This document shows positions 545-42,667 of a stretch of 64,000 nt of DNA, one piece after another; position 1 is the stretch's first letter, and every line of letters starts with the position of its first letter. The notes beneath the pieces are model-generated. The model was not told where the DNA came from and made no database searches. It saw only the letters and a program-made list of their open reading frames with translations. The position numbers were made by a program, and so were the translations under genes. Source of the DNA: Escherichia coli. GTDB lineage: Bacteria > Pseudomonadota > Gammaproteobacteria > Enterobacterales > Enterobacteriaceae. Location: the NCBI RefSeq assembly GCF_003018255.1, contig NZ_CP027440.1. One strand, given 5' to 3'.

Positions 545-2638
545 ATGAAAGCTACAGAAGCCCGCCTACTCGATTTTTTAAAACGTTCGCAGCAGTTTGT
601 TATTCCCATTTATCAACGGACTTATTCATGGACAGAACAACAATGTCGGCAACTTTGGGACGACATCATTCGTGCCGGAAAGCGTGACGATATATCAGCG
701 CATTTTATCGGTTCGGTTGTTTATATAGAGCAGGGATTGTATCAGGTTTCTGGTATTTCTCCGTTGCTGGTCATTGATGGTCAACAGCGGCTGACGACCG
801 CAATGTTGCTGATTGAGGCTTTATCACGCCATCTTGGCGAAGACGAAGTTTTTGATGGCTTTTCAGCAATGAAATTGCGTAATTATTATTTACTCAATCC
901 TTATGAGTCCGGCGAGAAAGGATTTAAATTACTGCTGACCGAGACTGATAAAGACAGTTTGCTGGCGTTAATAAAACAAAGACCAATGCCAGAAAACTAT
1001 TCCCATCGAATAATGGAAAACTTTACTTTCTTTGATGAACAAATTGCCAAACTCGGTGATGACTTGATCCCCTTATGTCGTGGGTTAGCAAAGTTATTAA
1101 TTGTCGATGTGGCGCTTAATCGTGGTCAGGATAATCCGCAACTGATTTTTGAAAGTATGAACTCCACCGGTAAGGCGTTAAGTCAGGCCGATCTGGTGCG
1201 CAATTTTATTCTGATGGGCCTCGAACCAGAGCATCAAACCCGGTTGTATGAAGATCACTGGCGTCCAATGGAAGTCGCTTTTGGTCAGCAAGGTTACAGC
1301 GAATATTTTGACAGCTTTATGCGTCATTATCTGACGGTAAAAACGGGGGAGATCCCTCGGACAGATGAAGTCTATGAGGCATTTAAACTCCATGCCCGCA
1401 GCCAGAGTGTTGCTGAAAAAGGCGTAGATCGGCTGGTTGAAGATATTCACATCTACGCGGAGTATTACTGTGCAATGGCATTGGGAAAAGAAAGTGACAA
1501 ATCGCTTGCTACGGCTTTTCAGGATTTGCGCGAGTTAAAGGTCGATGTGGCATATCCTTTCTTACTGGCGCTTTATCATGACTATAAAAATGGCGATTTG
1601 CCTCACGAAGATTTCCTGAGCATAATTCGTTTAATTGAATCTTATGTTTTCCGCCGTGCAGTATGTGCGATTCCGACGAATTCTCTTAACAAGACGTTTG
1701 CCACTTTTTATAAAGTCATTAATAAAGAAAAATATCTGGAAAGTATTCAGGTACATTTTCTGAATCTGCCTTCATATCGTCGTTTCCCCAACGATGATGA
1801 ATTTAAACGGGAATTAAAAGTTCGCGATCTCTATAACTTCCGTAGTCGCAGCTACTGGTTACGACGACTGGAAAACGATAAACGCAGAGAGCGCGTGGAA
1901 GAGTTTACGATTGAGCATATTATGCCGCAGAACGAAAATCTGTCGGCTAAATGGCGCGAAGAGTTGGGAAGCGACTGGCAGCGTGTGCATAAAGAATTGT
2001 TACATACGTTGGGGAATCTCACTTTAACGCGCTATAACTCCCGCTACAGTGACAGACCTTTCGCGGAAAAACGCGATATTGAAGACGGCTTTAAGCATAG
2101 CCCGCTTTATTTGAATATCGGTCTTGGACAGTGCGAAAAATGGGATGAAGCCGCCATTCACGCCCGAGCCGATCGTCTGGCCGATCTTGCGGTTCAGGTT
2201 TGGCAAGCGCCTGCTCTTCCTGAAGAGGTTTTAGCTGTTTATCGGGCGCAGCCGGAGAACAAAACCAGTTACAGCCTGAGTGATTATCCTTTTCTTGCTG
2301 ATGGTTCGCATAGCCGGGTGTTATTTGATCATCTTCGCGATGAAGTTATGCGCCTGGACGCAGGGATCACGCAGGAAGTATTGAAGCTCTATATTGCGTT
2401 TAAAGCTGAAACGAATTTTGTTGATGTTGTGCCGCAAAAAAGCCGACTGCGATTGTCGCTTAATATGCAGTTTCATGAACTGGTCGATCCGAAAGGTATT
2501 GCCAAAGATGTGACAAATGTTGGGCGATGGGGCAATGGCGATGTGGAAATTGGTTTCAGTGACCTCGCACAACTTCCTTACATTATGGGATTAATTCGTC
2601 AGGCATTTGAAAAACAGATGGAGAACGCGTTGGTATAA
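545..2638 (+). CDS. GmrSD-like DUF262 (ParB/Srx-like NTPase) + DUF1524 (His-Me finger nuclease) protein; candidate modification-dependent type IV restriction endonuclease, 697 aa
   Basis: N-terminal motifs IPIYQRTYSW and DGQQRLTT typical of DUF262; C-terminal EHIMPQN...H...GNLTLT...N resembles a DUF1524 His-Me nuclease motif; sits where K-12 has yjiT-mcrCB. Confidence 0.75.
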   Translation: MKATEARLLDFLKRSQQFVIPIYQRTYSWTEQQCRQLWDDIIRAGKRDDISAHFIGSVVYIEQGLYQVSGISPLLVIDGQQRLTTAMLLIEALSRHLGEDEVFDGFSAMKLRNYYLLNPYESGEKGFKLLLTETDKDSLLALIKQRPMPENYSHRIMENFTFFDEQIAKLGDDLIPLCRGLAKLLIVDVALNRGQDNPQLIFESMNSTGKALSQADLVRNFILMGLEPEHQTRLYEDHWRPMEVAFGQQGYSEYFDSFMRHYLTVKTGEIPRTDEVYEAFKLHARSQSVAEKGVDRLVEDIHIYAEYYCAMALGKESDKSLATAFQDLRELKVDVAYPFLLALYHDYKNGDLPHEDFLSIIRLIESYVFRRAVCAIPTNSLNKTFATFYKVINKEKYLESIQVHFLNLPSYRRFPNDDEFKRELKVRDLYNFRSRSYWLRRLENDKRRERVEEFTIEHIMPQNENLSAKWREELGSDWQRVHKELLHTLGNLTLTRYNSRYSDRPFAEKRDIEDGFKHSPLYLNIGLGQCEKWDEAAIHARADRLADLAVQVWQAPALPEEVLAVYRAQPENKTSYSLSDYPFLADGSHSRVLFDHLRDEVMRLDAGITQEVLKLYIAFKAETNFVDVVPQKSRLRLSLNMQFHELVDPKGIAKDVTNVGRWGNGDVEIGFSDLAQLPYIMGLIRQAFEKQMENALV

Positions 2639-2684: not shown

Positions 2685-3026
2685 TCAGGCGACTTTCTGT
2701 TTACCCGCAATCACCCCAATAAATTCCCGCACCTGCTTTTGTTTACGCGCCGACAGCTTGCACACCTGGCGCAGCGACTGCATTAGCTCGCTCTCTTCGG
2801 GGGCGGGTGGTTGGGCGGTGAGGACAATACAGCCTTCCATCACTTTGACAGCTATCGCCGTGCCGGTGGCAAAACCGGCGGCTTCCAGCCACTGACCTTT
2901 CAGGGTGATGGCGGGAATACGGCTGTAATCCGGGTAGCGACTCGCATAACTCACGGTTAATTGACGGTTATTTGCCGGGGAGACTTCTGCTTCGAACGGT
3001 TGTGCAATAGAATGCGTGTCAGTCAT
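2685..3026 (-). CDS. symE: SymE SOS-induced toxin (type I toxin-antitoxin, AbrB-fold RNase-like), 113 aa
   Basis: Translation from ATG at 3024-3026 ([52 protein letters not shown]...) matches SymE; AAGGA Shine-Dalgarno; the ORF-track N-terminal extension is probably not translated. Confidence 0.85.
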
Positions 3027-3097
3027 AACTGCTATTCCTTGAAAATAGTGATTGTGATGAGCGGTGCGGGTGTGTTGGCGCACATCCGCACCGCGCT
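3020..3097 (+). ncRNA. symR: SymR-like cis-antisense sRNA covering the symE start codon and 5' UTR (approximate ends)
   Basis: Plus-strand -10 TAGAAT at 3008-3013 with weak -35 TTCTGC; the start would fall a few nt inside symE, as described for SymR; a 14-bp stem-loop at 3062-3095 could be the 3' end. Boundaries are inferred. Confidence 0.4.
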
Positions 3098-3197: not shown

Positions 3198-3234
3198 AAT
3201 AAAGCGGCTATTGAGCCGCTTTATTGGTTTTATG
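3198..3234. terminator. Hairpin terminator between hsdS and the symE promoter
   Basis: Perfect 11-bp stem AATAAAGCGGC/GCCGCTTTATT with 6-nt loop, followed by GGTTTTA on the plus strand; 13 nt downstream of the hsdS stop on the minus strand. Confidence 0.5.
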
Positions 3235-3246
3235 AGGGCGAGAAAA

Positions 3247-4983
3247 TTAGTTTATCGCCGCGTTAGTCAGTGCGTCTGCAAGGTGCAGTTGGGTTTGTTG
3301 GGCGGTTTTTATACGAGTTTTAAGCTTATCGCATAGTTCATGAAGTAAACCTACTTGTGAAAATATTCTATATTGTTCAGTTAATGGTGGGCATGGGAAT
3401 GAATACAACATTACACTATTTGCTGATAGGTTGGGTTGTGCTGAGCCATTATCAAAGCGGTAAATCTGTGAGCGCCCAAATGGACTGGTTAAATAATTAT
3501 AAATATACCCTCCCATTTCTGTGATAAATGGTCTAATGATCATTAGTGATGAGGCAATAGCTCCTGTTTCATAGGGGGTTACAAAGGCAGTTTTACCAAA
3601 AGTTGCTCCTCGTAGGCAATAAACCAAATCACCTTTTTGAATTTTCCCACTTCTTAATTCATTAAATTTTCCTTCGGTTATAAAATTCATTTCTGTAACC
3701 GTAAGTGTACCATTTTTTTCTATATGTCCAGTATTGATCCAAGGAATACCTTGAGAAACATACTCATTTTTATTGGGATAATTACTTCCACGATCGCCAT
3801 TTATAAACTCTGATGTTAAACCAAATTTACACCACTCCCACCCTTCCGGCAGTTCAAACGGTTTTTCCTCATTGCTAATTGGCGGTAGTGGTTTTTGTTT
3901 TTTTATTTTCCCTTCTTTCACCAGTTGAGCTTTTTCCTGCGCAATTCGTTTGAGCAGTTCAGAGGCGGGTTCGTCATTCGGATCCTGCGGCACAAGTTTA
4001 CCCATTACGGCCAGTTGAAGAATGGTCTGTTTTAACGCATCCACGCTGGCTTCGGTGGTAAATAGGGTGTCGAAATGCTCGCTAATACGCGCCCAGTTTT
4101 CAGCCAGTTCCTCGGCGTTTTGGCTGTCTGTAAGCGTTCCCAACAGGGTTTCAACCAGTTGCTGATGTGCGTCCAGACTGGTCAGGGATTGCTGTTCCAG
4201 TTGGTCGCAGAGAACTGTAAGTTCTCTGATTTTTCTGACAATTTGTTGTTGTTCATTTATAGGCGGTAAAGCGATTATCTGTTGTTCCATTTTTTCTTTA
4301 GTCATATGGAGCATTGCAATACCGTTACCTTGCGATTTTATTTTATCTGTAATGGATAAAAGAAAATCATGTATAAAATATTTGTTTGAGTACTCTTCTG
4401 CAAATAAATTTAATTTCCATATATGGTAGTGATAAATTACTTTTTCTCCTGTCCAAATGAATGGCCCAAAAGATGCGGACCAAGCGTATATTAAATCACC
4501 ATTATTTATATATTTGTTTTCGTCTAATTGGAGGTCAGAGTAATACCACTCATTTGATGTGAATAGATTACCAACACGCAGCAAAGGAGTGCCTGTTTGA
4601 AGCATTTCATGTTTTTTATATGCTCGACCGTTAATAACCTCCATGAGATCTGCAACCCGCACCCACTCCCATCCCTCCGGCAATTCAAACGGCTTCTCTT
4701 CCTCGCTAATTCCTGGCAGTGGTTTTTGCTTTTTAATTTTACCTTGCTTCACCAGCTCTGCTTTTTCCGCAGCAATACGCTTCAGCAGCTCCGACGCCGG
4801 TTCATCATTCGGATCCTGCGGCACCAGTTTACCGCGCACCGCCAGTTCCAGAATCAGCTCACGCAATTTCTTAATGCCATACAAATCAATTTTACCGGAA
4901 CTGCCGCGCCCGGCGGTGGAACGGGTTTGCAACGCCGAGGTCCAGGTTTCCATATGATCAACGATCAGCTTTTCCACACTCAT
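3247..4983 (-). CDS. hsdS: Type I restriction-modification specificity subunit HsdS (578 aa)
   Basis: Two AT-rich variable domains separated by duplicated conserved segments (KLVPQDPNDEPASELLKRIA...KPFELPEGWEW twice); start overlaps the hsdM stop (TGATG). Confidence 0.85.
   Translation of the reverse strand: MSVEKLIVDHMETWTSALQTRSTAGRGSSGKIDLYGIKKLRELILELAVRGKLVPQDPNDEPASELLKRIAAEKAELVKQGKIKKQKPLPGISEEEKPFELPEGWEWVRVADLMEVINGRAYKKHEMLQTGTPLLRVGNLFTSNEWYYSDLQLDENKYINNGDLIYAWSASFGPFIWTGEKVIYHYHIWKLNLFAEEYSNKYFIHDFLLSITDKIKSQGNGIAMLHMTKEKMEQQIIALPPINEQQQIVRKIRELTVLCDQLEQQSLTSLDAHQQLVETLLGTLTDSQNAEELAENWARISEHFDTLFTTEASVDALKQTILQLAVMGKLVPQDPNDEPASELLKRIAQEKAQLVKEGKIKKQKPLPPISNEEKPFELPEGWEWCKFGLTSEFINGDRGSNYPNKNEYVSQGIPWINTGHIEKNGTLTVTEMNFITEGKFNELRSGKIQKGDLVYCLRGATFGKTAFVTPYETGAIASSLMIIRPFITEMGGYIYNYLTSPFGRSQIYRFDNGSAQPNLSANSVMLYSFPCPPLTEQYRIFSQVGLLHELCDKLKTRIKTAQQTQLHLADALTNAAIN
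3829..4032. repeat. hsdS internal direct repeat, copy B (central conserved region)
   Basis: About 200 bp, roughly 80-85% identical by eye to 4660-4863; encodes the second GKLVPQDPNDEPASELLKRIA...PFELPEGWEW segment. Confidence 0.7.
4660..4863. repeat. hsdS internal direct repeat, copy A (N-terminal conserved region)
   Basis: Direct repeat partner of 3829-4032 within the same gene. Confidence 0.7.
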
Positions 4984-6452
4984 CAGTTAACCTCCTTGCC
5001 AGACAGCGCAGCGCCAAGAATATCGCGCAGTTGATTACGCAGCGTCTGGATCTCCGCCTGCTGTTTTGCATACTGCGCTAACAGTTCGTCCGGGTCATGG
5101 CTGACGGTTTCCGCCTGATGTGGGTTTTTAATATCCAGATTGAAGTTACGCGCAATCACGTCATCAATGCTGACTTTCCACGCTTGCTCATTCTCGATGC
5201 GGCTGGCAAAACCATCGGCCTCGTTACCCCACCAGTCAATCTCCGCCTGAAACTCTTCGAACTTCATCGGCTTGGTTTTACTGTAATTTTTCACGCCCGC
5301 CGGATACGGATGCTCATAGAACCAAATCTCTTTGGTTGGCTGACCTTTGGTAAAAAACAACAGGTTGGTTTTAATGCCGGTATAGGGGTTAAACACACCA
5401 TTCGGTAAACGCACGATGGTATGCAGATTGCACTCTTCGGTAAGCAGCTTTTTGATTTTGGTTTTAACGCCTTCGCCAAATAGCGTGCCATCCGGCAATA
5501 CCACCGCCGCGCGACCGTTTTTCGCCAGTACTTCCACAATCAGTTGCAGAAACAGATCCGCTGTTTCGCGGGTTTGCATCTCTGCCGGAAAGTTCTTCTC
5601 AATACCGTCTTCTTCCGTGCCACCAAACGGCGGGTTGGTAACAATGACATCCAGTTGCTCATCCCAGGAGGAAAGCGGTTTGTTCAGGGTGTTGTCGTGA
5701 CGAATTTGTACAGGCACTTCAATGCCGTGCAGCAGCATATTGGTGGTCGCCAGCAGGTGCGGAAGCTGTTTTTTCTCGACACCGTGGATCTGTTGTTGCA
5801 GCGTCTGATGATCGGCGACGCTCTTCACGTATTTGTTCTTTACATGATCGAACGCGCAGGCAAGAAAACCGCCCGTACCGCAGGCCGGGTCCATAATGGA
5901 TTCGCCGAGTTTCGGATCAACGCGATCCACCATAAAGCGAGTGACGGCGCGTGGCGTATAGAATTCGCCAGCATTGCCCGCAGATTGCAGATCTTTAAGG
6001 ATCTGTTCGTAAATATCACCAAACAGATGGCGTTCGCTGGCGCTGGTAAAGTCAATTTCGTTCAGCTTGTTGATCACCTGGCGCAGTAGCGTACCGTTTT
6101 TCATATAGTTATAGGCATCGCTGAACGCCTGCTTCACCACGTAGCCGCGTGGGTTTTTATCGATAGGCGCAGTGAGGTTTTTCAACGCCGGGAACAGATC
6201 ATCATTAACGAATTCCAGCAGGGAATCACCGGTAATGCCCTGAGCGTTTGCGGCCCAACTGCGCCATAAATAACGCTGTGGGATCGGATATTGATAGTTA
6301 TCCTGCTCCAGTTCCAGCGCCTCTTCCTGGGCATCGAAGATTTTCAAAAACAGCAGCCAGGAGAGCTGACCGAGACGCTGCGCATCGCCATCCACACCGG
6401 CATCTTTGCGCATAATATCTTGTAATGATTTGATTACTGAACTGATAGACAT
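4983..6452 (-). CDS. hsdM: Type I restriction-modification N6-adenine DNA methyltransferase HsdM
   Basis: SAM-binding motif DPACGTGGFL and catalytic NPPFGG present. Start chosen at ATG 6450-6452 (MSISSVIK...); in-frame alternative ATGs at 6464 and 6488 (longest ORF 4983-6488). Confidence 0.85.
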   Translation of the reverse strand: MSISSVIKSLQDIMRKDAGVDGDAQRLGQLSWLLFLKIFDAQEEALELEQDNYQYPIPQRYLWRSWAANAQGITGDSLLEFVNDDLFPALKNLTAPIDKNPRGYVVKQAFSDAYNYMKNGTLLRQVINKLNEIDFTSASERHLFGDIYEQILKDLQSAGNAGEFYTPRAVTRFMVDRVDPKLGESIMDPACGTGGFLACAFDHVKNKYVKSVADHQTLQQQIHGVEKKQLPHLLATTNMLLHGIEVPVQIRHDNTLNKPLSSWDEQLDVIVTNPPFGGTEEDGIEKNFPAEMQTRETADLFLQLIVEVLAKNGRAAVVLPDGTLFGEGVKTKIKKLLTEECNLHTIVRLPNGVFNPYTGIKTNLLFFTKGQPTKEIWFYEHPYPAGVKNYSKTKPMKFEEFQAEIDWWGNEADGFASRIENEQAWKVSIDDVIARNFNLDIKNPHQAETVSHDPDELLAQYAKQQAEIQTLRNQLRDILGAALSGKEVN

Positions 6453-6518
6453 GTTGTATTCCATGAAAAACAAGGCCTTCTGCAACATGATGGTTGCAGA
6501 AGGCGCAAAAGAGAGTTG

Positions 6519-8951
6519 TTAAGCAGAGCGGGGCGGTAATTGGTAGATTTCGTTTTCCAGCTCGCTGAGCGCCTGATTATACCCGTTACGGTCGCCAAAT
6601 CCGGTTTTAATAATCTCCGGTAAGGTGCCCATGCTGTCGAATGGTTTAAGTTTCAGCACCTGAATACTTTCGATCTCCTGTACGCCCGCATCGGCGTATT
6701 TATCCAGCAGATTATCGAGCACGGCTTGCGCTGCTTCAGAGTATTTTGTGAAGTAGTTCCGCTTGCGCACGTTCTCGGCGCGCTCTTTGCGGGTTAACGG
6801 CGGCTGACCATACACTACGTGGCAAAGCATGTCGAACGGGTCGAGATCTTTACCGACTTCTTCTGCCAGTACTTCCCAGATGATCCCCTGTTGTTCCAGC
6901 TCGTGAATGATCGCTTCTTTGCGATCGGCGTCCTGCCACTTGCGGGTAAAGTCATCCAGCGAGGCATATTCTTTGAGCAGTGTTTTGCGGGTGTAATCTT
7001 TAAAAGATTCGGTAACCAGTTTACCGTCGGCATCGTAATACTGAACACGCTGCGCAATAACGCCCACCGCTACACCGTTGACGTGAAACTTGCGGATTTT
7101 CTTCTCGTCTTCTTCCGGAAGTGGGCCGACATCATCGGTATCGGTAACCTGGTATGGTGGCGCAGGCGGTTCATCAACGCCTGTTACCTGTTCGTCGTCA
7201 TGTTCGCTGATTTCTTCGAGTTTCTCTTCAAAATCAGATTCTGGATCGGCGATATCCTCTGATGTGGTATCCATGACTTTTTCGGGAATGCCATCGAAAC
7301 GCTCATCGGCAAACAGTTCGGTGGCTTTTTTAAAGTCGAGGATGGTAAACCAGAGTTTGCCGTAACGTTCGTCGATGCGTGTACCACGACCGATAATTTG
7401 CTTGAATTTGGTCATCGACTGGATGTTCTGGTCCAGTACTACCAGTTTGCAGGTTTTAGCATCCACACCAGTGGTCATCAGCTCTGAAGTGGTCGCGATA
7501 ACCGGGTACGCTTTTTTCGGGTTGATGAAGTTATCCAACTGAGCTTTGCCAATTTCATCATCGCCGGTGATTTTCATGACGTATTTGTCGTTCTTTTTCA
7601 CCTGCTCCGGGTTGAGATTCACCAGGGCGCGGCGCATACGTTCTGCATGATCGATGTCGTTACAGAAGACGATGGTTTTATCCATCGGGTTGGTGCGCTT
7701 GAGGTAGTCGGTAATGGTTCTGGCAACCAGTTCTGTCCGTTCGTCGATTACCATCGTGCGATCGAAATCTTTCTGGTTATAGATACGATCGTCGATCACT
7801 TCGCCGTTTAAGTCAGTTTGCCCTTTGGTTGGGCGCCAGCCTTGCAGATCAACATCAATATCAACACGGACAACTTTATAAGGGGCGAGGAAGCCGTCTT
7901 CGATCCCTTCTTTTAGCGAGTAGACGTAAACCGGATCGCCGAAGTAATCCGTGCTGGAGACTTCATGCGTCTCTTTTGGCGTGGCGGTTAAGCCAATTTG
8001 GGTGGCGGAACTGAAATAATCAAGGATCTCTCGCCAGGCGCTGTCTTCGGATGCGCTGCCGCGATGGCATTCGTCGATCACGATCAGATCGAAGAAATCT
8101 GGTGCGACTTGTTTAAACGCTTTTTGGTCTTCCTCCGGGCCAGTTATAGCCTGATAGAGCGCGAGGTGAATTTCATAAGCGGGATCAATGGTGCGTCCGC
8201 TGACTTTGGTCATTGCCGTACCAAATGGCTGGAAATCATTATTTTTGGTTTGGTCGACCAGAATGTTGCGATCGGCAAGGAACAAAATGCGTTTTTTATT
8301 TTTTGATTTCCACAGGCGCCAGATGATCTGGAATGCGGTATAGGTTTTCCCTGTTCCGGTCGCCATGACCAGCAGAACGCGGTTTTGCCCGTTGGAGACG
8401 GCTTCAATGGTTTTGTTGATTGCCTGAAGCTGGTAATAACGAGGCGATTTGCCGCTGCCATCGTCGTAATAGTCCTGAGTAATCACCGGAAGCTGAGCTT
8501 GTGTGTATCCTTTCCAGAGGCAGAATTTTTGCCAGAGTTCAGCGGGGGAGGGGAAGTCATCCAGCGTTATTTGCTTTTCAAGGCATTCACCTTCAGCTGC
8601 GGTGGCATCGCGGAAGATAAAGCCATCACCGTTGGTGGCAAAAACAAAAGGAACGTCCAGCAGGCGCGCATATTCAATGCCCTGTTGCATCCCTTTGCCA
8701 ATTTCATGTTTGTTGGCTTTTGCTTCAATCACGGCTAAGGGAATGCCTGGTTTGTGATACAGCACGATGTCAGCAGATTTTACCGTTCTGCGTGCCGCAA
8801 CTTTACCACGTACGATGACTTTACCGTTCCGGAGTTTGACCTCCTGTCTGATTTGCGTTGTGTTGTCCCAGCCTGCATTGAGAATGGCTGGCATAACGCA
8901 TTTGGTAATGATGTCTGCTTCCGTCAGGTTACTTAGGTTCAGTTCCGCCAT
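6519..8951 (-). CDS. hsdR: Type I restriction endonuclease subunit HsdR, 810 aa (EcoAI-like / type IB size class)
   Basis: Helicase motifs [11 protein letters not shown] (Walker A) and VIDECHRG (DECH box); 810 aa is far shorter than EcoKI-type HsdR; gene order hsdR-hsdM-hsdS on the minus strand. Confidence 0.9.
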
Positions 8952-9091
8952 GGGGTGTTCTCATCTAAATGCGATGCGTAAATTCTACACAGAAAAATAG
9001 ATGAATTCATCTGTTCAAAGAGTATTATCAGCGTTAAGTCACTGTTTTAAAGGTATTCTTGAGTTTCATCAATAGCTGGATAAGGATTCAT

Positions 9092-10060
9092 ATGGAGAAT
9101 GTTCGGTTCTTGCAAGGAGTGAAACAATATTTTTGTACTAAGGCATTAGATGTCATTCTGCTAATTTATCTACTCCTTGGTTTTATACTTCTCCCTTATA
9201 AATATCTGTGGAAAGATATTATTTTATCTCTGTACTTTGTTGGTATTCTTCTTTATGCATTAGTGGAAGAAAATCGCATTGCAGAATATATGGGGTATTT
9301 TGTTAAGTTCAGTAATAAAAACAGGTTGAATAGTTGTGCTGCCTGGTGTTCACTTATTGCATGGTTTATATTTTTGTTTTTTGTGCTTTCAATTAATATT
9401 TTTCCAGTCAGTGCCTCTGTATATATTTTTAGTGCTTTTTCATTATTTGTTTTTCTGGGGGGTATTTTTATTATATTAGAGTTAGAGTTTAAAGAAAATA
9501 AAAAATTAATGATTATTAGGTCTGTGACTATAGCAGTCATGCCAATTATATATTTATTCACAAGTAGTTATGCTTCCAGTTTATTTTTAAGTTTGAGTAA
9601 TCTAAACATTACGCTAACTCCATGGGTTGAGTATTTCTGGAAAGGGATGGTTTTTATGTTGCTTTTCTTCATGTTAATGCAACTTATTATCTATTTTGCT
9701 TTTTTAACTCTGGGGACTAAATTAAGTGTGTATAGGTTGTTTATACTTGCCGGAGCATTTGTAGTATCTACTTTTTTAGTGGCTTTTGCTTTAAAAAATG
9801 TAGAAGGTATTTCGTACTACGTTTTAAAAAGCACCATAGATTTTGAATGGCGTAATCAGATTAAATGTGGCCAGTTGAATATTTCACGTTCGAATGAAAA
9901 GTATTTTGGGTTTAATACTGATAAATATACTGTATTTTATTCCGGCAGAGATGGTAAATGGGGCTTTGATGAGTTGAAATGTAAGAAAGGTTCTGACAGG
10001 AGAGATGCATATTCTATTGAGAATGTCTCAGAATATAACGTGCCTGGATGGCTGAAATAA
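9092..10060 (+). CDS. Hypothetical polytopic membrane protein (about 7 TM helices plus 80-aa hydrophilic C-terminal domain), very AT-rich gene
   Basis: Long ORF in AT-rich DNA; ATG at 9092 preceded by AAGGA (the ORF track begins at a TTG at 9059); hydrophobic segments throughout; lies where K-12 has mrr; I recognise no family. Confidence 0.55.
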   Translation: MENVRFLQGVKQYFCTKALDVILLIYLLLGFILLPYKYLWKDIILSLYFVGILLYALVEENRIAEYMGYFVKFSNKNRLNSCAAWCSLIAWFIFLFFVLSINIFPVSASVYIFSAFSLFVFLGGIFIILELEFKENKKLMIIRSVTIAVMPIIYLFTSSYASSLFLSLSNLNITLTPWVEYFWKGMVFMLLFFMLMQLIIYFAFLTLGTKLSVYRLFILAGAFVVSTFLVAFALKNVEGISYYVLKSTIDFEWRNQIKCGQLNISRSNEKYFGFNTDKYTVFYSGRDGKWGFDELKCKKGSDRRDAYSIENVSEYNVPGWLK

Positions 10061-34335: not shown

Positions 34336-34422
34336 TGGTGCGAGGGGGGGGACTTGAACCCCCACGTCCGTAAGGACACTAACACCTGAAGCTAGCGCGT
34401 CTACCAATTCCGCCACCTTCGC
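34336..34422 (-). tRNA. leuV: tRNA-Leu (anticodon CAG), third gene of the leuQPV operon
   Basis: Reverse complement reads GCGAAGGTGGCGGAATTGGTAGACGCGCTAGCTTCAGGTGTTAGTGTCCTTACGGACGTGGGGGTTCAAGTCCCCCCCCTCGCACCA (87 nt, encoded CCA). Confidence 0.95.
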
Positions 34423-34456
34423 ACAGTCATCTTACTTTTTTTGATATTGCCTCGTT

Positions 34457-34543
34457 TGGTGCGAGGGGGGGGACTTGAACCCCCACGTCCGTAAGAACAC
34501 TAACACCTGAAGCTAGCGCGTCTACCAATTCCGCCACCTTCGC
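34457..34543 (-). tRNA. leuP: tRNA-Leu (anticodon CAG), middle copy; variable-arm C-to-T variant relative to the flanking copies
   Basis: Same 87-nt sequence except plus-strand A at 34496 (tRNA sense GTGTTCTTAC instead of GTGTCCTTAC). Confidence 0.95.
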
Positions 34544-34571
34544 CCAGTGCGAGCAATATCAACGTGGTTTT

Positions 34572-34658
34572 TGGTGCGAGGGGGGGGACTTGAACCCCCA
34601 CGTCCGTAAGGACACTAACACCTGAAGCTAGCGCGTCTACCAATTCCGCCACCTTCGC
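34572..34658 (-). tRNA. leuQ: tRNA-Leu (anticodon CAG), promoter-proximal copy
   Basis: Identical 87-nt tRNA-Leu sequence. Confidence 0.95.
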
Positions 34659-41674: not shown

Positions 41675-42450
41675 TTTGCCGTTTTATCGACACCCACTGC
41701 CATTTTGATTTCCCGCCTTTTAGTGGTGATGAAGAGGCCAGCCTGCAACGCGCGGCACAAGCGGGCGTAGGCAAGATCATTGTTCCGGCGACAGAGGCGG
41801 AAAATTTTGCCCGCGTGCAGGCGTTAGCGGAAAAATATCAACCGCTGTATGCCGCATTGGGCTTGCATCCTGGTATGTTGAAAAAACATAGCGATGTGTC
41901 TCTTGATCAGCTACAGCAGGCGCTGGAAAGGCGTCCGGCGAAGGTGGTGGCGGTGGGGGAGATCGGTCTGGATCTCTTCGGCGACGATCCGCAATTTGAG
42001 AGGCAGCAGTGGTTACTCGACGAACAACTGAAACTGGCGAAACGCTACGATCTGCCGGTGATCCTGCATTCACGGCGCACACACGACAAACTGGCGATGC
42101 ATCTTAAACGCCACGATTTGCCACGCACTGGCGTGGTTCACGGTTTTTCCGGCAGCCTGCAACAGGCCGAAAGGTTTGTACTGCTGGGCTACAAAATCGG
42201 CGTAGGCGGTACTATCACCTATCCACGCGCCAGTAAAACCCGCGATGTCATCGCAAAATTACCGCTGGCATCGTTGTTGCTGGAAACCGACGCGCCGGAT
42301 ATGCCGCTCAACGGCTTTCAGGGGCAGCCTAACCGCCCGGAACAGGCTGCGCGGGTGTTTGACGTACTTTGCGAGTTACGCCCGGAACCAGAAGATGAGA
42401 TTGCCGAAGTGTTGCTAAATAATACGTATACGTTGTTTAACGTGCCGTAG
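41671..42450 (+). CDS. yjjV: TatD-family metal-dependent hydrolase/DNase YjjV
   Basis: (M)ICRFIDTHCHFDFPPF... TatD motifs; TTG start overlapping the yjjU stop. Confidence 0.85.
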   Translation: MICRFIDTHCHFDFPPFSGDEEASLQRAAQAGVGKIIVPATEAENFARVQALAEKYQPLYAALGLHPGMLKKHSDVSLDQLQQALERRPAKVVAVGEIGLDLFGDDPQFERQQWLLDEQLKLAKRYDLPVILHSRRTHDKLAMHLKRHDLPRTGVVHGFSGSLQQAERFVLLGYKIGVGGTITYPRASKTRDVIAKLPLASLLLETDAPDMPLNGFQGQPNRPEQAARVFDVLCELRPEPEDEIAEVLLNNTYTLFNVP

Positions 42451-42667
42451 GCCGGATAAGGCGTTCACGCCGCATCCGGCAGTTGGCGCACAATGCCTGA
42501 TGCGACGCTTGACGCGTCTTATCATGCCTACAAGTCTGTGCCGAACCGTAGGCCGGATAAGGCGTTCACGCCGCATCCGGCAGCTGGCGCACAATGCCTG
42601 ATGCGACGCTTGACGCATCTTATCATGCCTACAGGTCTGTGCCGATCCGTAGGCCGTATCCGGCATG
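42447..42667. repeat. BIME-type tandem array: two ~100-bp units (each carrying two REP palindromes) plus a partial third unit
   Basis: Units 42447-42547 and 42548-42645 are near-identical (GTAGGCCGGATAAGGCGTTCACGCCGCATCCGGCAG...TGCCTGATGCGACGCTTGACGC...) followed by GTAGGCCGTATCCGGCATG. Confidence 0.65.

Follow-up and report, generated by a model that had tools for sequence, protein, structure and literature searches.

The window, i.e., the whole 64,000-nucleotide stretch of Escherichia coli DNA that was analyzed, carries on its minus strand a type I restriction-modification operon composed of hsdR (6519-8951), hsdM (4983-6488) and hsdS (3247-4983). HsdR is an 810-aa protein with the Pfam domains ResIII and EcoEI_R_C (6e-37), the latter typical of type IB; HsdM is a 501-aa N6-adenine methyltransferase subunit (Pfam N6_Mtase, 1.1e-93, and HsdM_N), and the 578-aa ORF of hsdS was assigned by Pfam, PDB, AlphaFold and Foldseek to the specificity subunits of the EcoAI (type IB) family. 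Two Methylase_S target-recognition stretches were found in HsdS (Pfam PF01420, E = 1.7e-33), and in a PDB sequence search both of its halves aligned to solved HsdS chains, including that of EcoKI. The start codon of hsdS shares one nucleotide with the stop codon of hsdM (TGATG), and the motif AAGGAGG is located a few bases upstream.

An hsdS gene 100% identical to that of the window is carried by E. coli 2014C-3338, in which the gene order is yjiA, hsdR, hsdM, hsdS, symE and a GmrSD gene, and in which RefSeq names the hsdR product 'EcoAI/FtnUII family' type I restriction enzyme subunit R. The EcoEI_R_C domain of HsdR, this product name and the arrangement yjiA-hsdR-hsdM-hsdS-symE together identify the locus as the E. 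coli immigration control region with a type IB (EcoAI-family) hsdRMS allele. Systems of this type are recognized by an HsdR of ~810 aa with EcoEI_R_C, a short HsdM and a long HsdS (570-595 aa), and the lengths of the window subunits (810, 501 and 578 aa, respectively) fit this description; subunit complementation, antibody cross-reaction, DNA hybridization with EcoAI and an interval of 9 between methylated adenines are further criteria for the type. According to the accounts of Kannan et al. (1989) and Weiserova et al. (2008; PMC2481252), type IB HsdS proteins also bear a direct repeat whose copies start near aa 50 and 325, with EcoAI, EcoEI, CfrAI, StySKI and EcoAO83I among the bearers; in the window HsdS the core of the repeat lies at aa 51-107 and 328-384.

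The direct repeat in hsdS

A repeat search returned one long direct-repeat family in hsdS, with two copies of 192 nt (4663-4854, R1, and 3832-4023, R2) that are 80% identical and spaced 831 nt, i.e., 277 codons, and hence in frame. The best in-register core spans 171 nt at 81% identity (4663-4833 vs. 3832-4002). Counted from codons 51-107, it comprises 29 identical codons, 23 synonymous and five non-synonymous differences, with 52 of the 57 amino acids the same. Copy 1 was compared with all 189-nt segments of either strand of the 64-kb window, and its score against copy 2 (0.794) far exceeded the next best one (0.43) and the background (0.25 ± 0.033); these values, together with the E = 1e-45 of the repeat in a self-blastn of hsdS, indicate that the repeat is not due to chance. 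The intragenic repeat reported in the initial annotation is therefore real, and a self-comparison of the gene, the check proposed there, revealed a significant internal match. The identity of 80-85% estimated by eye for 4660-4863 and 3829-4032 was slightly generous, being 76% at the DNA level when measured; in protein, 57 of 68 residues are alike over that longer interval.

The variable domains had been described as AT-rich and as bracketed by the copies. The former is correct, since the two variable cassettes have 33.8% (TRD1) and 34.5% (TRD2) GC as compared to 47-53% in the conserved parts of the gene and 51% in the window; the latter applies to TRD1 plus the central helix, but not to TRD2, which lies downstream of copy 2. 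Each copy is rather located directly N-terminal to one TRD. From its start, which overlaps the hsdM stop, the gene consists of an N-terminal region conserved across nine alleles (aa 1-43, 4855-4983), R1 (aa 44-107, ..LILELAVRGKLVPQDPNDEPASELLKRIAAEKAELVKQGKIKKQKPLPGISEEEKPFELPEGWEW, 4663-4854), the TRD1 cassette (gene nt 322-774, 4210-4662), a central region (4024-4209) that according to the alleles and the structural model holds the conserved part of the coiled-coil helix D1 and extra helices at aa 290-320, R2 (aa 321-384, ..TILQLAVMGKLVPQDPNDEPASELLKRIAQEKAQLVKEGKIKKQKPLPPISNEEKPFELPEGWEW, 3832-4023), the TRD2 cassette (gene nt 1153-1680, 3304-3831) and the conserved end of the coiled-coil helix D2 (..SAQQTQLHLADALTNAAIN, 3247-3303), all on the minus strand. 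Both repeat copies, hereafter also called x, were delimited by repeat search, codon alignment and model.

Type I hsdS genes are the classic targets of phase-variable switches (PMC4190663), and the repeats could be imagined as targets of a site-specific recombinase in a shufflon, as in pneumococcal and mycoplasmal type I systems. The copies are however direct and not inverted, scanning of both strands of the 64-kb window detected neither an additional repeat copy nor a silent hsdS cassette, no recombinase gene is present in the locus, and the gene is devoid of tandem repeats (none found by TRF in 3200-5000), so that we assign this reading a negligible probability. The type IC-style repeat that alters spacer length is likewise placed inside hsdS, and its recombination also changes specificity; it differs in consisting of short tandem units in helix D1, while the window copies are 831 nt apart and not tandem.

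Predicted fold and origin of the repeat

An AlphaFold model of HsdS, built from 131 aligned family members (pLDDT 94.8), predicts two 44-residue helices of the HsdS coiled-coil kind (242-285 and 534-577), the first of which (D1) would begin inside the TRD1 cassette. In the model the two repeat copies are built of equivalent elements: the end of a short helix (the helix spanning residues 35-49 at copy 1 and 311-326 at copy 2), a loop (KLVPQDPNDEPA), a helix of 17 residues (63-79 and 340-356), an extended linker (80-105 and 357-382) and the strand with which the TRD opens (106-109 and 383-386). In each copy the linker is Lys/Pro/Glu-rich and the helix that precedes it amphipathic. The top Foldseek matches of the model were the HsdS structures 7vru, 1yf2, 3okg, 5ybb and 2y7c (E down to 1.6e-17), and no structure of a type IB complex was present among the PDB sequence matches or the Foldseek matches.

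A weak alignment of the repeat was obtained with each of the two helix ends of EcoKI HsdS (aa 193-229 and the C-terminal tail at aa 406-452), which fits a circular permutation between type IA and type IB (PMC3874165). The circular-permutation, or symmetrical, model of HsdS goes back to Kneale (1994) and Janscak and Bickle (1998), as reviewed in PMC3874165, and in its terms the two repeat copies are equivalent points of the two HsdS halves. The same review reports that EcoAI HsdS tolerates breaks of the chain at residues 91 and 380 (cp91 and cp380; Janscak and Bickle); judged by residue number alone, both appear to fall in the linkers modelled here (80-105 and 357-382).

A different origin can be derived from Roberts et al. 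(2012; PMC3510504), whose account describes extra-long conserved regions in type IB HsdS and proposes that the extra type IB inserts come from the C-terminal tail of HsdM, so that the repeated peptide would be a captured and duplicated HsdM tail. The shorter HsdM of the window (501 aa vs. 529 aa in EcoKI) agrees with such a transfer. In BLASTP, however, the repeat regions matched EcoKI HsdM only through a chance 7-mer (E = 0.48), while the same query aligned to the two EcoKI HsdS helix ends mentioned above (E = 6e-4 and 7e-3, the search space being very small), and we consider the HsdM origin unlikely. It concerns the origin of the peptide only and is compatible with an internally duplicated HsdS.

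Divergence and constraint between the copies

An identity of 80% over 192 nt seems high at first, and could be read as a tandem-type duplication of young age, or as a gene-conversion tract formed too recently to have diverged. The analysis of synonymous sites refuted this possibility: third codon positions account for 24 of the 32 base differences in the core, and between R1 and R2 the synonymous divergence is close to saturation (dS = 1.52, pS 0.65) with a dN of only 0.082 (Nei-Gojobori), as compared to a dS of 0.18-0.21 for the same copy between alleles. Moreover, the position-specific residues AVRG in copy 1 and AVMG in copy 2 are kept from Enterobacterales to Vibrio and Methylococcales, and the repeat occurs in at least 583 loci of GTDB species genomes from many phyla. 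A recent event has thus next to no probability.

Among the eight E. coli alleles in which the repeats are intact, identity was 94-98% between R1 copies, 93-99% between R2 copies and 77-80% between R1 and R2 (the ninth allele, IAI39, diverges inside the repeats and was left out), and no sign of concerted evolution of the two copies was observed among the E. coli alleles compared. The saturated dS, the position-specific signatures and the similarity of copies at the same position imply that the duplication is ancient and that the copies are not homogenizing in E. coli. The codon comparison indicates that the DNA similarity of the copies is a by-product of purifying selection at the protein level, the 80% identity arising because ~90% of the codons must keep their residue while the synonymous sites are randomized.

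We therefore read the two segments as the direct repeat of type IB HsdS, one copy being N-terminal and one central, both kept by the internal pseudo-dimer of the subunit and without mutual recombination in E. coli, a reading to which we assign a probability of roughly 0.88. In this reading HsdS arose long ago by internal duplication of a half-subunit composed of x repeat, TRD and coiled-coil helix, and the type IB chain is circularly permuted relative to EcoKI, so that one x lies close to the N-terminus and the other within the conserved centre. Each x provides the helix end, loop, 17-residue helix and linker that lead into the first TRD strand. The constraint on the repeat may arise from the contact of the two HsdS halves with two identical HsdM subunits: the copies would remain alike since the surface that each half offers to its HsdM in the M2S1 core must be the same. 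The internally duplicated, pseudo-symmetric structure (PMC2481252, PMC3874165, PMC3510504), the main cause of the repeat, was missing from the initial interpretation, which considered the repeat as a substrate for recombination.

Recombination between the copies in E. coli

Unequal crossing-over between the repeats had been suggested as a source of new specificities at this locus, in line with the domain movement (DoMo) concept of Furuta et al.; R1 and R2 would recombine in E. coli to give single-TRD or three-TRD hsdS genes. The arrangement x-TRD-y-x-TRD-y, giving rise to products with one TRD or three TRDs, has been documented for Helicobacter pylori and Streptococcus pyogenes (PMC3077401), where, as in the window hsdS, TRDs are flanked by direct repeats. 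The 831-nt offset being in frame, a hypothetical R1/R2 crossover would leave an intact ORF of 301 aa with one TRD, and TRDs present at both positions and a case of gene conversion between the copies, both found in the wider family (see below), also speak in favor of such exchange. Several observations in E. coli nevertheless oppose it. Besides the saturated dS, the longest exact run shared by R1 and R2 was 9-20 nt across nine alleles, 20 nt being the longest identical run in the window gene. For efficient RecA-dependent recombination in E. coli, a need for roughly 23-27 bp of identity is usually quoted, more than these runs offer. A y repeat downstream of the TRDs was not detected at the DNA level in the window hsdS, where self-blastn returned x alone; only x is thus repeated at this level, and its copies are 20% diverged, at variance with the DoMo systems, whose repeats in H. 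pylori are short (14-53 bp; PMC3077401).

The products of such crossing-over were searched in 5,426 complete E. coli genomes, a survey that detects variants fixed in finished assemblies and not rare subpopulations. A synthetic query in which the N-terminal region was fused directly to the C-terminus and symE, and which would match in a single place only in case of an R1/R2 deletion, gave no such match in any of the 2,882 matching genomes, normal loci responding in two separate places. Duplications were likewise not found, each of 972 genomes having a single match to the central-region query. A partial match in RCAD0514, starting inside R2, was considered as a possible deletion hybrid and rejected, as it is a truncation by IS1; IS1 and IS5 also account for the truncated hsdS of AR_0118 and MSI001, and every truncated hsdS inspected was interrupted by one of these two elements and not by repeat crossover. 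Finally, no TRD1 was more than 29% identical to any TRD2 among the nine fetched alleles and the 120 closest database proteins, a sample composed mostly of E. coli and Shigella. One-TRD variants, three-TRD variants and position swaps, the hallmarks of DoMo, were in sum not seen in the E. coli samples. Crossing-over of R1 with R2 inside the same gene does not operate as a route in E. coli. The proposal of unequal crossing-over at the window locus, given the dS of ~1.5, the runs of at most 20 nt, the lack of concerted evolution and the zero deletions and duplications in 5,426 genomes, did not find confirmation; we judge it very improbable.

Exchange of TRD cassettes between alleles

The type IB hsdS gene was present in 982 of the 5,426 complete E. 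coli genomes, and most of these share with the window only the conserved parts. In the alignment of nine alleles, the N-terminus, the centre and the C-terminus were conserved and separated by two unrelated variable cassettes, with edges at gene nt 312/774 and 1156/1680; the upstream edges correspond to the 3' ends of R1 and R2, while in some alleles (IAI39, P0113 and P0115) divergence starts already inside the repeat. Over gene nt 273-776, which include TRD1, the window gene and the O104:H4 allele are free of mismatches, and over gene nt 1135-1679, which include TRD2, two mismatches separate the window gene from an O26:H11 allele. The window allele is a natural mosaic in which an O104:H4-type TRD1 is joined to an O26-type TRD2, i.e., the kind of recombinant domain combination that the initial annotation had proposed to look for in related strains. 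Its view of the repeats as substrates for domain shuffling can consequently be retained in part, as cassettes are exchanged between alleles with edges at the repeat ends, and not as crossing-over between the two copies of one gene.

The repeats may serve in this exchange as homology arms at the same position, R1 pairing with R1 and R2 with R2 of another allele; the D1 helix and the C-terminal/symE flank would act as the opposite arms, and whole TRD cassettes would be replaced. New specificities by recombination between alleles in conserved regions are known from natural and engineered TRD hybrids, namely StySQ/StySJ (type IA) and StySKI/EcoAI (type IB), and the window allele is alike. It shares with the known type IB direct repeat the family, the locus, the position and the layout of conserved and variable parts, and differs from known type IB alleles only in its combination of TRDs; in particular, the repeats of the experimentally typed EcoAO83I (strain A0 34/86) have 94-95% DNA identity to the window repeats at the same position. 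A literature search for the recognition sequence of the window allele returned only second-hand O104:H4 motifs, such as CCACN8TGA(T/C)/TCAN8GTGG as quoted in PMC11963381, which is not assigned to the window system.

The literature on type I restriction already covers the repeat and its position as well as the notion of shuffled TRDs. What is added here are numbers on the absence of exchange between R1 and R2 in E. coli and on the evident exchange between alleles at the same position. For annotation purposes, a repeat of this kind should be taken as a marker of type IB hsdS and not as a sign of instability.

TRD movement in the wider type IB family

When 1.84 billion representative proteins were searched with a profile, 17,761 relatives were obtained at E ≤ 1e-30. 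In a set of 258 full-length proteins, composed of family representatives, closest matches and fetched alleles, identities between the TRD1 of one protein and the TRD2 of another reached 96% (P0159 and P0183, respectively), the TRDs of P0196 and P0218 occurred in reciprocal order, and the window TRD1 was 73% identical to the TRD2 of P0232. A further pair, TRD1 of L055 and TRD2 of L071, reached 92%. Such position swaps appeared only when diverse representatives were included, and not in the sample dominated by E. coli. The DNA unit shared in these cases runs from x to a second repeat located after the TRD (y), which was found in 37 of 75 related loci. Between P0159 (nt 133-818) and P0183 (nt 1000-1685) this unit is 83% identical, about as much as the flanks, which indicates that the swap is old.

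The frequency of TRD sharing at ≥50% identity was estimated from 80 loci in named GTDB genomes, out of the at least 583 relatives. Sharing across positions concerned 43 of ~7,060 ordered pairs (best 92-96%) and sharing at the same position 81 and 75 of ~3,490 pairs, the former being thus about a quarter as frequent as the latter. This movement of TRDs in the family is in agreement with the DoMo model that Furuta et al. put forward (2011; PMC3077401), acting here on long time scales. The x repeats and the weaker y repeats could be the crossover points for these moves in the whole proteobacterial type IB family, with rare R1 x R2 events also in E. coli, an extension that we hold to be rather improbable. 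If true, such events would produce either alleles with swapped TRD positions or, by deletion, a half-HsdS of 301 aa, possibly able to homodimerize and to recognize a palindromic site; the marked divergence of the copies at synonymous sites might in that case be retained because this deletion, harmful as a rule, is thereby suppressed.

As for the repeats themselves, the median identity between R1 and R2 in 75 loci was 73% at the amino acid and 70% at the nucleotide level (pS 0.75), and clear gene conversion was found in one locus only, that of a Methylomonas koyamae MAG (L050), whose copies are 91-95% identical at the nucleotide level with an exact run of 50 nt, and whose R1 bears the R2 signature AVMG. 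Within one protein the likeness of R1 and R2 (mean 0.63) was slightly higher than between different proteins (0.58; 131 proteins, i.e., 130 representatives and the window allele), an observation that counts against a complete lack of exchange between the copies. Together with the conversion in L050 it indicates that some exchange does occur. Over long times and in other lineages, R1 and R2 do exchange occasionally, both as gene conversion and as movement of TRDs between positions. No three-TRD form was found among the best 150 family representatives, a list for which one-TRD forms would score too low; the longest of these proteins owe their size to other additions, with an unrelated C-terminal extension in those of 759-787 aa and an in-frame insert in those of 675-687 aa.

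Sequence Divergence and Exchange in hsdS

The conserved segments of hsdS, which correspond to the two copies of the direct repeat in this gene (the x repeat; copy 1 at 4663-4854 and copy 2 at 3832-4023), showed a synonymous divergence of 0.18-0.21 between the window and other E. coli alleles. Typical E. coli core genes have a synonymous divergence far below this range, and the values found in hsdS fit the persistence of long-lived allelic lineages at the locus.

Exchange between the two repeat copies was considered across 75 loci, among which L050 (59-1819), from a Methylomonas koyamae MAG, was the only one with copies this alike: they were 91-95% identical in DNA and shared an exact run of 50 nt, and copy 1 carried AVMG, the residue signature of copy 2. 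This locus offers evidence of gene conversion between its x copies.

Insertions and Losses in the HsdS Family

Among the family representatives, two distant type IB-like HsdS proteins contain an in-frame insert with GIY-YIG-like sequence, located inside copy 2 of the x repeat in P0189 (aa ~340-470) and inside copy 1 in P0261 (aa ~60-165); the insert of P0189 is moreover flanked by short duplicated strings (..AGRTRQAGLPA..). The insert resembles a mobile element that has entered in frame, with the x repeat as its apparent target. Four other HsdS proteins (P0181, P0200, P0211, and P0256), of 759-787 aa, possess an additional C-terminal domain of ~210 aa beyond the usual C-terminus, and the first target recognition domain of P0200 is a close relative of that of the window.

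Insertion sequences have also affected the locus within E. coli, as hsdS was repeatedly disrupted by IS1 or IS5, with loss of hsdR/hsdM, in strains AR_0118 (L009), MSI001 (L011), and RCAD0514 (L013). In AR_0118 a chloramphenicol acetyltransferase gene adjoins IS1.

Other Genes and RNAs in the Window

Directly downstream of hsdS, within 2685-3097, lie the toxin gene symE on the minus strand and, on the plus strand at 3021-3097, the antisense RNA SymR that serves as its antitoxin (Rfam, 91.7 bits). An intact ORF of 697 aa (545-2638, plus strand) encodes a GmrSD-type type IV restriction protein with DUF262, GmrSD_C, and DUF5655 domains; the closest RefSeq genome differs from the window at 58 of the 10,983 compared bases, and in its annotation the span of this ORF is split into a 1,164-nt CDS and a 'partial' DUF262 pseudogene. 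Between hsdR and yjiA, an AT-rich ORF of 333 aa (9059-10060, plus strand; about 34% GC), labeled only as hypothetical in RefSeq, encodes many hydrophobic residues and may possibly be a membrane protein; it looks like a horizontally gained passenger of the immigration control region. Farther along, three tandem tRNA genes of 84 nt each were detected with equal scores at 34339-34658 (minus strand), and two REP-derived naRNA4 elements lie side by side at 42450-42629 (plus strand).
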